This document shows positions 39,001-45,000 of a stretch of DNA of 64,000 nt, one piece after another (the first letter of the stretch is position 1; the number at the start of each line of letters is the position of its first letter). Where the stretch lies: the NCBI RefSeq assembly GCF_988243305.1, contig NZ_OZ547136.1; one strand, 5' to 3'. Made by a program: the position numbers.

Positions 39001-42000
39001 TGTAGTGTTCAACCAGCTTCATCTCACTAACGCCCTCAATCCTTTGAATTTTTTATTCATTGATCAGTTTCTGCGCCAGCGCAATGACATGTTCTACCTC
39101 TTCCGGCGTCAGGCTGCCGTCCTTTGCCCACTGAATTTGCCCGGTTTTATTCAGCACCAGAATGGTTGAACTCTGCTCCTGCAAGTGCCAGGCAACGCGT
39201 CCCTGTCCATTGCCGTCAATAACGAATTGCGCCCATGGATAGCGGCGTTTATTTTTTTCGATTTTGCCAACGACAAAATAGCCGGTACCAAAGATGGCAT
39301 CATCAGTGTTCACAATGGTGGTAGGCTGAAAACGATCCTGCGGAAAGTTTGCCGCTTCAACCGCTTTAATTAACAGTGAGTTCTTTTTCTTCGCCGACTT
39401 ACGCCCGGCGATATACTGAATAATGCGGACTTTTCCCGCCAATTGTGTGCTGTTCCACTTTTGGTAGTGAATTTCGTCGTCGCTATTCAGAAGCAGCTCA
39501 CCACCTTCCTGGATATAAACAGAGGTAACCGTTTTGCCAGTGACGAAATTGTGCGCCTGCACACCCGGGGCTAAGAGCATGATAATCAGCGCAATAATCA
39601 AACGAGATGACATCATTGCTCCGGTTATAGCGGAAAACGCGAAATCAGCAGTTCTAAGCGCTGACGAATATCGCTATCCAGCGCCATCGGTGCATCATAC
39701 GACTGGCGGTTTTCCATATCATCCGCCACCATGTCGTCGTGTTTATCCCCCATCAGGCCATTAATGGCGGCGAGGAAGCGGGAAATCTGTAACGCCTCTT
39801 TATTTTCAGGATCAAGCGATCTTAGGGTGTCGTAATAAGAAACCTGCTGGCTGATGATTTTTCGCACATCATGAAATTCCCTGCCAGTTAGTCGCGGTTT
39901 GGCAATTATCTCTTTCAGGGTATGCATTTGCTTTTGCCGATAGGCAATAAAACCGCTTACGCTTTCTAACTGGCTATGGCGTAATGAATAGTTCACCAAC
40001 GACCAGACCGGAGAGCTTAAATAAACCCGTAACAGGTTGCCGTAATACGACACAATATTTTTCTTACCGTTACGAAAGCCGTCCTGAAAACGCCCCAAAA
40101 AAACGGTCGTTTTGCCGAATAAAAATCCGGCCTGATGCTTTTTTAAATACAGCCGTTGCGCAAAACGCAGGTGCTTGTAGCGCGCTCGCATGTATTTAAA
40201 TTGTTTGCGCTCATCAGCAGTCAGCTCATCGCCTTTGGCCTGTTTGCATATTAAACGCAGTAACTCCTGGCGATTGACGCCATTGAGCCAGAATTGCAGG
40301 CATAACGCGTAATTATCATGGATGATTTCGGTGGTACAACTTAGTGCGATAGTCGGCGGCAAACTGACCTGTGCATCAACGACATCATCTTCTTCAATCG
40401 CAACAAATAGACGCTCGCTCGCCTCAAGCGGGAAATATTTTCTCATCATCAGGATTTCTCTCCGGCTGCGTTATAAAGCAAGGAATGGCGCTGAAAAAAT
40501 GCCTTTAAGGTTGGAATTAACGAGAGCGCCACGTCCAGACATTGCCCACCGAAGTAAGCAAACGCTGCTCCCAGCACACCAAACAGATGACAGAACATGA
40601 ACAGCAATACGATGTAGCCGATTGAGGCGATGGTTTGCGCCACGAGAAAAGCGCGCTGTTTTCCCGCCATCAATAGCAATGACTCCTGAGGGAAGCCCAG
40701 CATCGAGATCACAATTGCGCCCAGCATCACCTGAATCAGGTCATACGCTTCGAGATACTTAACGCCAAACACCAGCGAAATGAGCGGCTTGCCGACAATC
40801 AACACCGCGAGCGCCACCAGAATACCGATTCCGCCCGCCAGTAAACCGGACTTCACGCCTAACAACCACGGTCTGGTGGTACGCGGATCTAAACGCATCA
40901 CCTCTGGGTAAAAACTTTTGCCCAGTAAACCCGCTGGCGTTCCGGCGGCGTCGAAGAATGTCATGGCGATTTTAAATAACCCGGCGGCAGCGGGTCCTAA
41001 CACGATCCCCACCAACACTGTGCTGCACGAATTACGCGCCGACCAGATGGAATGGGCAATGTTGGTTGACCAGACAAAACTCCACGCGCCTTTGATGTGT
41101 CGGGCAGACTCAAACAGATTCAATTTGAACGCGTTATGGATATTTCTGCGGCGTAATTCACGTGCGGCAAACCACCAGTACATGGTGCCGCCAACAAGAT
41201 TCGAGGCGTACCAGGCAATAACAAAACCCGCAAAACCAAAGTCAAAATACCAGGCAACGACGCTCCCCGCTGCGCGCAGAAAAGGTTTCGTCGCCTGCTG
41301 TACAGCAATTAAGTCGAAGCGATCTACCGCACGCAGAATGCCGGTCGGCGTGGAGGAAGCCATTGAAGGAATGAGCGTGCAATACAGCGCTGCCAGCCAA
41401 AAGCTTTGGTCATCCAGACCTAATGAATGGGAAAGAAAAGGGAGTAAGGCAATGCCGCCGACAATCGCCACCGCGCCGCTGACGATATCCAGCGAGAAGG
41501 AAAATGAGACGACATTGCGGAATTGCTGCGGATTATTGTTGGTTAATGCTGGTGTTCCGTACTGAACCACCAGCTGCCATGTCTGAAACTTAATAAAATC
41601 GCTGATCGACTTGGCGTACGATTGCACAATCACCAGTACGCCAAACATGGCGGGTGTCATCCCTTTACCGGCACACGAGAGCGCCAACAGACCCAGCAAA
41701 GCGCTCACGACATTACTGGAACCTAACCAAGCGCTATTGCGAATAATGGTGCGAAACGCGCCATCTGCAAACCAATGTTTGATGTTAAACCCCGCCAATT
41801 CAGCCTGACCTTATCGTTGATAGTAAAAAGTATCCCGCCAGCTTTAAGTTAAACTTCGGCGGTCAGAAACGATGGCAACCAGAGAAACCGCCTTCTGTGC
41901 CTGTTCCAGCACTGCGCTGTAGGGCGCTCTGGAATCAATCTCAAGAATTTTTGTGCCGTTATAGCCAATCGTCGACATGACACCGATTTTGTCCTGCAGC

Positions 42001-45000
42001 TCGGCATAGTCATGGTCAGGCTTGCGGGAGATGGCAGTATCAATATCAATCCCCAAACGAATGATTAATTCAGGACGGTATTGCGCCATTTGTTGGTATA
42101 AACGCCGTTCGCGCTGCGCCAGAAACATGCTGATTTTCCCGGTCGCACGTTCGACGCCGATCCCCGGTCCGTCATAATAAAAGCCCGAAATTTCAGCCTG
42201 CGGGAAGCGATCGCTGACCACCAGAACGCCACTTTGCGCCAGTCGCTGAACCTTGCGTAGATTCGCCATTCTTCGCAGCGAGAAGCAGTACATAATCACC
42301 GCCGCCCATAGCGCTGGAGATTTGGTTTTCATGCTTTGGGTTTTCGAGGATTTGGCCGCCAGTCGCCGTTCCAGCCAGACGCCAACCAACGGCAATCGTT
42401 TGATTTTGTCGCCGTCTTCGCCGGAGAGCAGCCCCAAATAGCGGCGCTCGGTTTGCCAGTGTTGTTGCAGCGATTTCACCAGGTCAGTGGTCAGTGTGGA
42501 TTTACCGGTGCCATCACACCCGACCACCGCAATCAGCCCCGGAATGTAGTTGGGCTGCGGCGCGGTTGTACTATTAACAGTTTGTGTTTGTAGTGCATCC
42601 ATTCGTTAAATCATCCCCTATCCATTTTGGTGATCAGGAAAGCGCGGCGTGAATTGCGCGTAGTGACGCTTGCATAATTTCATCGGCTGGTTGCCGACCA
42701 TCCAGTTCAAGGATCTTTGCGCCATTGAATGTCAGTTGCGGCGTAACGGCGATTTTTTCCTGTAACGCCGCCAGTTGGTGGTCAGGTTTACGCGCAAACG
42801 CCGTTTGTTCATCAATGCCAAGACGAATCAACAATACGGGCAAATAAGACGCCATCCATTGGTACAGCTTCAGCTCGCGCTGCCTTAACATTTTTATCCA
42901 ACCGTTACCGCCCGTGGTTTTTGCCAATTGCGGGCCATCAAAGCGAAAACCCGGCACTTCAACCTGCGGGTAGCGGTCGGTGATGAGCAGATAGCCTTGC
43001 TGGCTTTTACACAACATTTTGCGAAACTTATACGCCCGCCAGCAGGAAAGCAGATAGATAACCAGCGCAGTAATATTGCCAGGCGGTGTTGAGGGCTTTT
43101 CGTGCACATGTGCCGCTTTACTTCGCAGATAACGCCCAAAAGGTGCGCCAATAACAGGGAGCTGTGAAATCCATTCGCCAATTCGCCCGGACGATTGCCC
43201 GAGATAAATGTGTTCTGTTGGCATTCTTGCTGCCAGTTCATTTACCAGGCTTGCCGTGAGGGTCGATTTACCTGAACCATCACATCCTACAATGGCAATA
43301 ACACGCACTGGCGTGGAATTAATTATTGACATATTACGTTGATTCACGAAAAACCCGGCAGCAAATAATGTATTGAATATTACGTGGTCCGTGCTCAGAA
43401 TATCCGTTCAACCTTATTGTGACAATGGTTAATTGTGACATTGACCTGAATTACGCTTTCATAAAAACATATTAACCAAATAAATATTTTTAATGGATAT
43501 TTAAATTAAAGGATATATTCATGCAGTCAATAACACCTCCATTAATTGCCGTTATTGGTAGCGATGGTTCAGGCAAGTCAACGGTGTGTGAACATCTCAT
43601 TACCGTTGTCGAAAAATATGGTGCTGCCGAAAGAGTTCATTTAGGAAAACAGGCCGGAAATGTCGGTCGTGCAGTGACAAAATTACCGTTGATGGGAAAA
43701 TCCTTACATAAAACAATTGAACGAAATCAGGTGAAAACAGCAAAAAAATTGCCAGGACCAGTTCCGGCGCTGGTAATTACAGCGTTTGTCGCCCGTCGCT
43801 TACTGCGCTTTCGTCATATGCTTGCCTGTCGTCGTCGCGGGTTAATTGTTCTAACCGACCGTTATCCTCAGGACCAAATTCCTGGCGCTTACGATGGTAC
43901 AGTGTTCCCGCCTAACGTTGAAGGCGGCCGGTTTGTCTCATGGCTGGCAAGCCAGGAACGTAAAGCGTTTCACTGGATGGCGAGTCATAAACCTGATCTG
44001 GTCATCAAACTCAATGTCGACCTTGAAGTTGCCTGCGCGCGTAAACCCGACCATAAACGGGAATCGCTGGCGAGGAAGATTGCAATAACGCCACAGTTAA
44101 CCTTTGGTGGTGCACAACTGGTTGATATCGACGCCAATCAGCCACTGGAAAAGGTGCTGGTTGATGCAGAAAAAGCGATTACGGATTTTATGACCGCGTG
44201 TGGTTATCACTAGTCAAAAATGGAAATGCCCGATCGCCAGGACCGGGCATTTTCAGGAAGGTTAAATCAACTGCAATGCTATCCAGTACAACCCACCAGA
44301 AAGAAAAATCGCCGCCGGTAAAGTAAACACCCACGCCATCAGGATGCTGGTTACCGTTTTACGCTGTAACCCACCGCCGTCCACCACCATCGTCCCTGCT
44401 ACCGCAGACGAGAGGACGTGTGTTGTGGAGACGGGCATCCCAATATAACTGGCAAGGCCGATAGACACTGCCGCCGTCATTTGTGCCGCCATGCCTTGCG
44501 CATACGTCATGCCGCGCTTACCAATCTTCTCACCGATGGTCATCGCTACACGACGCCAGCCAATCATGGTGCCAATGCCGAGCGCCAGAGCTACTGCCAT
44601 GATGATCCACACCGGAGCGTACTCAATGGTGCTTAACATATCGCTGCGCAGTTTTTTCAGCAGGTTCTGGTCTTCTTTACTGACGCCTGGCAGTTTCGCC
44701 AGCTTCGCGGAGGTATCAGAGATGCACAGCATAATGCGGCGCAGCTGGCTGCGCTGACTCACGCTTAACGGCTCGTAACTTTCCATATTGCCTGGCAGCA
44801 TCGTTTTAACGCGCGCAATCGCATCAAAGGTATTTGCCGGATGACAGTGAAACTCCGTTACTTGCGTGCCATCAGTCGATGCCGCAGGCAATGGAGGTTC
44901 CATCGCAATCAACTTCTGCGGCAGTTCAGGATGCTGTTGCAGATAGTGTTCAAAGTTGGTGACGGCATCGCGGGTACGGGTAATTTCATAGCCGGACGCA

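Follow-up and report, generated by a model that had tools for sequence, protein, structure and literature searches.

Thymidylate-kinase-like paralogs YghR, YghS and YghT in Escherichia coli and other proteobacterial sphingolipid loci: candidates for building a phosphate head group on ceramide

What do three related kinase-like proteins do beside a set of genes for the synthesis and export of ceramide? The question is raised by a 64,000-nucleotide stretch of an Escherichia coli chromosome (contig NZ_OZ547136.1 of assembly GCF_988243305.1; hereafter, the window), in which yghR, yghS and yghT adjoin the dihydroceramide genes (Table 1); gene annotation was taken from RefSeq record NZ_CP148331, which is 100% identical across the region. 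The three have been "y-genes" without a known function since the K-12 genome, and RefSeq now mislabels two of them as deoxythymidine monophosphate (dTMP) kinases. Literature searches found no functional role described for yghR, yghS or yghT, or for the neighboring yghQ in a sphingolipid context, and searches on CHAD proteins with sphingolipids, on thymidylate kinase (TMPK)-like kinases with Wzx, and on Zymomonas and Novosphingobium papers likewise gave no functional description. We favor, at a probability of roughly 0.55, the reading from genomic context that YghR, YghS and YghT (together YghRST) are ATP-dependent phosphotransferases that build a phosphate-containing head group on the ceramide made by the adjacent genes, with YghQ then flipping the lipid and LptF2/G2 extracting it.

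Paralogy and conservation of yghRST

The first-pass annotation of the window had described three paralogous P-loop proteins of 230 to 252 amino acids (aa) with common motifs at 41844-44213, and open reading frames (ORFs), alignment and BLASTP all confirm them. Each pair aligned over essentially its full length, with 44% identity between YghR and YghS (E 2e-61), 36% between YghS and YghT (E 1e-53) and 34% between YghR and YghT (E 9e-47), a paralogy far beyond chance. All three carry a Walker A motif of the form GxDGxGKST (GCDGTGKST in YghR, GCDGSGKST in YghS), with DRFPQ and SRKPDH in YghR and DRYPQ and ARKPDH in both YghS and YghT. The label "three tandem" genes has to be amended, as yghS and yghR are in tandem and yghT is divergent; ORF strands do agree with the same annotation in placing two genes in the direction of the export operon and one against it. 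The genes yghS and yghR belong to a seven-gene codirectional run, yghS-yghR-yghQ-CHAD-ytfJ-lptF2-lptG2, whose members overlap or are separated by at most 45 base pairs (bp), and the ceramide genes adjoin this run.

A scan of one genome per species yielded 323 relatives, and the best 80 loci, being those most similar to YghS, were analyzed by tblastn with the E. coli cluster proteins, linkage being counted within 10 kb. YghS orthologs occur throughout Enterobacterales and beyond; the 80 loci include Gammaproteobacteria (Enterobacterales, Rhodanobacter/Luteibacter, Halioglobus and Carnimonas), Betaproteobacteria (Nitrotoga, Gallionellaceae and Rhodocyclaceae), Alphaproteobacteria (Sphingobium, Novosphingobium and Acetobacter), and Deltaproteobacteria and Myxococcales. 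YghR was present in 76 loci and YghT in 67, with exactly three paralogs in 61; five loci (L070, L073, L074, L077 and L081) have four, the extra one being a second T-type copy, and the set of kinases is still growing in the lineages concerned. In 72 of the 80 loci the R gene comes after the S gene, in the same orientation and no more than 400 bp away, the two overlap in 2 more, and natural S-R fusion proteins were found, one of which (P0121) lies inside a typical spt locus. As for the partners, YghQ was found in 61 loci (the YghQ-like matches in distant loci being just 23-29% identical), a 274-aa CHAD-like protein in 54, AcpR in 54 and Spt in 53, and at least one cluster gene was present in 71. 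Serratia and Carnimonas have the three paralogs inside the spt cluster in gene orders unlike that of E. coli. The window itself holds the complete arrangement: one member of each orthogroup, S before R, and linkage to spt, yghQ and the CHAD-like gene. We conclude that YghRST, the CHAD-fold protein and YghQ form a conserved module of proteobacterial sphingolipid loci, the latter two being the tightest partners of the kinases, and the tie to the neighboring lipid cluster that had been proposed for the window holds over four proteobacterial classes.

Two of the records, one titled Martelella alba BGMRC 2031 (L026) and the other a metagenome-assembled genome titled Pseudomonas sp. (L018), carry loci that are 69-71% identical to E. 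coli YghS and have the enterobacterial gene order, and the taxonomic labels of these contigs seem doubtful.

Within the 80 loci the paralogs fall into three orthogroups, R, S and T: of 223 nearest neighbors, each taken from another locus, 221 matched in type, and p-distances were 0.40-0.42 within orthogroups versus 0.57-0.65 between them. Such clean separation means that the triplication is old and not a recent local duplication. Because every orthogroup keeps the catalytic motifs, none of the three looks like a pseudoenzyme, and each also has its own conserved stretch right after the P-loop helix, on the acceptor side. These features are consistent with the earlier suggestion that a retained triplication reflects three substrates or steps.

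Fold and catalytic motifs

Are the three, as RefSeq has it, dTMP kinases? By fold and by profile, thymidylate kinases are indeed the best matches of YghRST. A profile of the family matched TMPKs in the PDB at E 4e-11 over a span that includes the P-loop, the Arg helix, the DRY motif and the LID, and YghRST match solved kinases of the TMPK and deoxynucleoside kinase type over the structural core, a resemblance at the level of the superfamily. The shared features are an Asp at the third position of the P-loop (GxDGxGKST), a DR[YF] motif that comes behind strand 3, an Arg that is conserved on the next helix and aligns with R78 of Plasmodium falciparum TMPK, and a basic LID (RKPDH). GxDGxGKST, DR[FY]PQ and RKPDH are invariant among YghR, YghS and YghT, at least 90% conserved in every orthogroup, and aligned with their TMPK counterparts.

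The differences from TMPK (PF02223, TIGR00041) are nevertheless considerable. The three proteins score 30.6, 25.0 and 25.5 bits against TIGR00041 (dTMP kinase), far under its cutoff of 83.25, and at most 26 bits against NF005923, whose cutoff is 193; Pfam has no family for them and gives P-loop-level matches alone, the best being Thymidylate_kin at E 0.012 over residues 21-63. Relative to TMPK they have some 45 additional residues inserted behind the first helix, and a long loop with a conserved DG(P) follows the DRY motif. In the HMMER alignment, YFPNRETGIGQ of P. falciparum TMPK pairs with yLGkgsGnlgr, which replaces FP-x-R, the segment after the first helix that in TMPK binds TMP and its nucleobase, by a nonconserved LG-x-x-S/G; these acceptor-site arguments are drawn from alignments. 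TMPK, moreover, is the product of one housekeeping gene in nucleotide metabolism, whereas YghRST are three co-inherited paralogs in a context of lipid synthesis and export. A true dTMP kinase was rejected on these grounds (curated cutoffs missed, acceptor segment not conserved), and because of the low bit scores and the Pfam E value the name "dTMP kinase" on yghS and yghT is an over-annotation. The first-pass annotation had named a clear assignment to nucleotide metabolism as the outcome that would count against a role in the lipid cluster, and no such assignment emerged, since the likeness to TMPK does not go below the superfamily. YghRST are, in our reading, members of an uncharacterized branch of TMPK-like P-loop phosphotransferases, anciently diverged and with catalytic motifs intact, that are not dTMP kinases.

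RefSeq names are inconsistent across records: yghS and yghT are called "dTMP kinase," and yghR is called "ATP-binding protein YghR," "hypothetical protein" or "nucleoside/nucleotide kinase family protein."

Several other identities were considered and rejected. YghRST are soluble, basic proteins (pI 9.6-9.8) with no transmembrane segment. As had been claimed, they lack the signatures of ATP-binding cassette (ABC) transporters: no LSGGQ occurs in the three translations, and matches to ABC_tran and NCBIfam ABC models cover just some 25 residues of the P-loop, which rules out an ABC ATPase taking the place of the absent LptB. A lipid kinase of the DAGK type (CpgB, YegS or sphingosine kinase) is ruled out by the lack of a DAGK_cat match in Pfam and of GGDG in the sequences. 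PPK2 was not among the top fold or profile matches; polyphosphate is a conceivable phosphate donor of YghRST. A role in anti-phage defense or as a STAND NTPase was dismissed, PADLOC yielding P-loop noise only (17-19 bits). LpxK, the lipid A 4'-kinase, shows that a membrane lipid bound for export by the Lpt system can be the substrate of a soluble-looking P-loop kinase.

The proposed phosphate head group of ceramide, and rival readings

YghRST travel with a ceramide synthesis and export cluster in many bacteria and therefore most likely phosphorylate that lipid and do not make DNA precursors. The lipid cluster corresponds to the dihydroceramide locus already published for E. coli, represented in BL21 by aca, aasR, epi, acpR and spt (PMC9386255), together with homologs of the LptF2/G2 sphingolipid exporter; in Caulobacter, the LptF/LptG paralogs of the sphingolipid locus are implicated in sphingolipid transport and bind the housekeeping LptB (bioRxiv 10.64898/2026.04.12.717747). 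RefSeq annotates no glycosyltransferase and no Caulobacter Cpg-type head-group gene in the E. coli locus, so YghRST are the only candidate head-group enzymes there. The Caulobacter crescentus locus, CC_1152-CC_1168, has the same five ceramide genes, an LptF2/G2 pair and a MOP flippase (PMC11324152, PMC9386255, bioRxiv 10.64898/2026.04.12.717747), but its head-group genes are cpgA-D and a phosphoesterase, where the E. coli type has YghR/S/T and the CHAD-like protein (plus the YtfJ-like protein in Enterobacterales); this difference in gene content suggests a different head group. Its ceramide kinase, CpgB (CCNA_01218), has the role that we propose for YghRST, ATP-dependent phosphorylation of ceramide in a sphingolipid locus as the first step to an anionic head group (PMC10331486). 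Homology between them was rejected: CpgB is of the DAGK/sphingosine-kinase type with GGDG, whereas YghRST are P-loop proteins of the TMPK fold with no such domain and no detectable similarity to it, and the E. coli-type locus is without cpgA-D.

We propose the following sequence of events. The products of aasR, acpR, spt, epi and yghO would synthesize dihydroceramide on the cytoplasmic side of the inner membrane, where the soluble, basic kinases would use ATP to phosphorylate ceramide, already phosphorylated ceramide, or both, giving an anionic phospho-ceramide; YghS and YghR would probably act as a heterodimer, with YghT separate. YghQ would then flip the product, and LptF2/G2, probably with the housekeeping LptB, would extract it towards the outer membrane. 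We infer each of these elements alike: the kinase activity, the lipid substrate, the number and positions of the phosphates, the S-R heterodimer and the order of transport.

The partner protein supports this reading. The 274-aa product of the gene next to yghQ has a CHAD fold (the structures compared were Ricinus CHAD, 6qv5; PptA, 6rn5; and YgiF, 5a61). CHAD domains are polyphosphate-binding modules, so that the fold of the partner is that of a module for binding phosphate chains, and the invariant residues of the CHAD-like family are chiefly His, Arg and Lys. Sequence searches with this protein against NCBIfam, Pfam and the PDB gave nothing significant. Pfam CHAD (PF05235) does not match the E. 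coli protein and reaches E 0.089 in one of 17 family members; two distant members have a precomputed PF05235 match, and one carries a CHAD name in UniRef. The family thus differs from known CHAD proteins in that most members, that of E. coli included, lie under the Pfam and PDB sequence thresholds; the 274-aa protein also stands alone, without a CYTH fusion, and is found among sphingolipid genes rather than with polyphosphate granules, its binding of polyphosphate being a prediction.

Further neighbors that recur were identified by de novo clustering of all ORFs from the 80 loci, and most of them lie directly beside the kinases. A DgkA-like small membrane kinase (Pfam DAGK_prokar) is encoded in 19 loci (e.g., L002 2279-2644 and L004 12404-12730), in many non-Escherichia Enterobacterales and in Carnimonas, and is a candidate for the first ceramide kinase. 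An OlsC/LpxO-like acyl 2-hydroxylase and an LpxE-like PAP2 phosphatase were each found in 18 loci, and a SepP/LpxF-like PAP2 phosphatase in 8. A homolog of LmtA, the lipid A 1-phosphate O-methyltransferase, occurs in 13 loci at a median distance of 27 bp from one of the R, S and T genes, and in 13 loci the yghT ortholog shares an operon with it. These neighbors are enzymes either of acyl-chain hydroxylation in lipids or of lipid-linked phosphate, and several are homologous to enzymes that modify lipid A.

Some beta-, gamma- and deltaproteobacterial loci (L053 792-9793, L082 4956-17034, L070 and L077) have the kinases interleaved with LpxE-like, SepP/LpxF-like, LmtA-like and OlsC/LpxO-like genes, the LmtA-like gene occupying the slot held elsewhere by the CHAD-like gene.

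The wider family extends further. A search of 1.84 billion representatives returned 2171 relatives. The family has members in Sphingobium, Novosphingobium, Zymomonas, Gluconobacter and Acetobacter, which are classic sphingolipid producers, and in Azotobacter. Sphingolipid genes have been reported in Azotobacter vinelandii (PMC11324152). Many relatives are about 500 aa long and consist of an unrelated N-terminal domain followed by the kinase-like domain (L005 7223-8731; L087 1570-4686; P0166-P0270); no Pfam model covers them, and the N-terminal domain, with the motif hWKSN.HL...G.tDlD.LV, is nucleotidyltransferase-like and not CHAD. The notion that the 274-aa protein is this domain split off was rejected, BLASTP being not significant and the hhalign probability 0.2. 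These longer relatives lie beside Wzx in a Wzx/Wzy exopolysaccharide cluster or form one polypeptide with a Polysacc_synt_3 flippase or with a GT4 glycosyltransferase, and the tie to MOP flippases is therefore not confined to sphingolipid loci.

Several considerations weigh against a lipid substrate. TMPK-fold enzymes normally act on soluble nucleotides, we know of no lipid kinase of this fold, and no membrane-binding segment is evident in the soluble, basic YghRST. The distant relatives in Wzx/Wzy exopolysaccharide clusters occur there without spt, so the ancestral substrate may have been something other than a sphingolipid. In 27 of the 80 loci there is no spt within 10 kb, although some of these are short contigs or Sphingomonadales with scattered genes, and the loci are not phylogenetically independent and may share ancestry through horizontal transfer. 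K-12 retains intact yghRST despite the absence of the ceramide genes. Finally, CpgB, so far the only ceramide kinase characterized in bacteria, belongs to the DAGK type (PMC10331486), and in the 19 loci that have them the DgkA-like genes, rather than the triad, could supply the first phosphate.

Alternatively, the substrate that YghRST phosphorylate could be a small, soluble precursor of the head group, or an unusual nucleotide, which is later moved to ceramide, the three enzymes forming a short soluble activation pathway. We regard this as unlikely, although the TMPK/deoxynucleoside kinase fold is typical of soluble-metabolite kinases, YghRST are themselves soluble, the G.tDlD.Lv motif of the 500-aa relatives suggests kinase-plus-activation chemistry, and Caulobacter CpgD uses a nucleotide-activated phosphoglycerate (PMC12275187). 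No transferase that could attach such a precursor is encoded in the E. coli locus as annotated by RefSeq, the conserved neighbors are enzymes that modify lipid phosphate, and the CHAD-like partner suggests phosphate chains and not an organic head group.

A second alternative, and a doubtful one, is that YghRST are ATP-binding accessory or regulatory subunits of YghQ, LptF2/G2 or both, and couple the binding or hydrolysis of ATP to flipping, gating or assembly with no phosphorylation of lipid. Such a role would fit the co-occurrence of YghQ in 61 of the 80 loci, the distant relatives that adjoin Wzx-type flippases or are fused to them in one polypeptide, and a locus without an LptB of its own. 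However, in their fold, DRY motif, LID and conserved Arg for the acceptor phosphate YghRST are like phosphotransferases and not like transport ATPases, and MOP flippases are not known to require an ATPase. Caulobacter LptF2/G2 bind the housekeeping LptB (bioRxiv 10.64898/2026.04.12.717747), and the Caulobacter sphingolipid locus has a MOP flippase, yet no P-loop kinase is annotated among its 17 genes (PMC11324152).

If YghRST do phosphorylate ceramide, a more elaborate outcome can be imagined, which we hold to be speculative and improbable as a whole: the three kinases act serially on the phosphate end of ceramide phosphate to give a di-, tri- or tetraphosphate head group, the CHAD-fold protein holds or measures the chain, LmtA-like and PAP2 enzymes trim or cap it in other bacteria, and YghQ and LptF2/G2 export a lipid A-like anionic outer-membrane lipid. 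In enzymes of the TMPK type the acceptor is itself a phosphate, and the Arg residues that bind this acceptor phosphate in TMPK are kept in YghRST, so that oligophosphate extension of ceramide phosphate is allowed. The starter would be made by DgkA-type kinases; E. coli DgkA accepts ceramide as a substrate.

That YghRST are dTMP or other nucleoside/nucleotide kinases of nucleotide metabolism, beside the lipid cluster by coincidence, is very improbable: two of the three do bear the RefSeq product name, TMPKs are their best matches and K-12 keeps them without the ceramide genes, but the bit scores, the P-loop-only Pfam match, the altered FP-x-R segment and the 45-residue insertion all argue otherwise, E. 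coli has its own essential tmk, and synteny with spt is conserved over four proteobacterial classes.

Genomic neighborhood and distribution in E. coli

Table 1. Features of the yghRST region in the window (positions in nucleotides from the first base of the window).
Feature	Position	Strand	Product or description	Basis
yghO	31241..32383	-	predicted N-acyltransferase (aca / bacterial ceramide synthase homolog)	RefSeq; ECD_02850 = aca in PMC9386255
aasR	32755..34479	+	fatty acyl-AMP ligase / acyl-ACP synthetase	RefSeq; ECD_02851 in PMC9386255
epi/cerR	34476..35390	+	NAD(P)-dependent reductase of ceramide synthesis	RefSeq; ECD_02852 in PMC9386255
acpR	35422..35670	+	specialized acyl carrier protein	RefSeq; translation; ECD_02853 in PMC9386255
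spt	35670..36842	+	serine palmitoyltransferase	
lptG2	36876..37955	-	LptG-like permease	RefSeq; Pfam LptF_LptG in orthologous loci
lptF2	37952..39022	-	LptF-like permease	RefSeq; Pfam LptF_LptG in orthologous loci
YtfJ-family gene	39053..39616	-	secreted protein, 187 aa	TIGR01626 216 bits, above cutoff; N-terminal hydrophobic segment
CHAD-fold gene	39625..40449	-	CHAD-fold protein, 274 aa, annotated hypothetical	
yghQ	40449..41798	-	MOP/Wzx-type flippase-like membrane protein, 449 aa	weak NCBIfam MOP flippase match; homolog in 61/80 loci
yghR	41844..42602	-	TMPK-fold P-loop kinase-like, 252 aa, R orthogroup	ORF; RefSeq "ATP-binding protein YghR"; motifs; S-R order
yghS	42634..43347	-	TMPK-fold P-loop kinase-like, 237 aa, GTG start, S orthogroup	
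yghS-yghT spacer	43348..43520	.	divergent intergenic region, AT-rich, 173 bp; probable divergent promoters	sequence
yghT	43521..44213	+	TMPK-fold P-loop kinase-like, 230 aa, T orthogroup, divergent from yghS	ORF; motifs

Within the spacer between yghS and yghT a promoter-like site is predicted on the minus strand at 43425-43397. In K-12, an FlhDC site found by systematic evolution of ligands by exponential enrichment (SELEX) is located between the same two genes (PMC9962212), and overexpression of SlyA raises yghS 3.1-fold (PMC5797941); yghS is also flagged in table columns of the latter paper that we interpret as H-NS-binding data sets. The SlyA response and this flag suggest that the locus is probably silenced in the laboratory.

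At the other end, a GC-rich hairpin with a 12-bp stem (44224-44252) lies between the convergent yghT and pitB and is a likely bidirectional terminator. The pitB phosphate transporter gene (44262-45761) stands beside yghT, and a functional tie was rejected: the two are adjacent in only 10 of the 80 loci (Escherichia, Citrobacter, Pseudocitrobacter and Hafnia), so that the adjacency is probably not functional. The YtfJ-like gene was found in 36 of the 80 loci; 35 of these are Enterobacterales-type records, and the remaining one is the record titled Martelella alba (L026).

The ceramide-plus-Lpt segment is at least 80% covered in 4068 of 5426 complete E. coli genomes (about 75%), and the stretch from yghQ to pitB, which includes yghRST, is covered to the same extent in 4599, some part of it being matched in 5086. 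K-12 MG1655 (L089, 3124000-3137000) has yghO, IS5 (insH9), a truncated yghQ (1068 nt vs 1350 nt), yghR, yghS and yghT, and is without the block aasR-epi-acpR-spt-lptG2-lptF2-ytfJ-CHAD; its ceramide genes were lost through an IS5-associated deletion, leaving yghRST orphaned. An absence of K-12 phenotypes, as in a silkworm screen with no clear effect, is consistent with our reading, given that K-12 has lost its ceramide genes at IS5.

Placement of yghR, yghS and yghT in a module for the head group and export of a sphingolipid gives these genes a testable function, and points to an unstudied, probably phosphate-rich sphingolipid, whose locus is encoded by about 75% of complete E. coli genomes and by many Enterobacterales, Xanthomonadales, Betaproteobacteria and sphingomonads. 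If the proposed phosphorylation of ceramide is true, YghRST would add to the TMPK fold a new branch of lipid kinases, and CHAD domains would have a new role; if, further, the oligophosphate version is true, bacterial membrane lipids would gain a new class and this fold a new enzymology. Were the product an anionic outer-membrane lipid like the ceramide phosphoglycerates of Caulobacter, it could affect sensitivity to polymyxin and detergents, innate immune recognition and the outer-membrane biology of a major pathogen.

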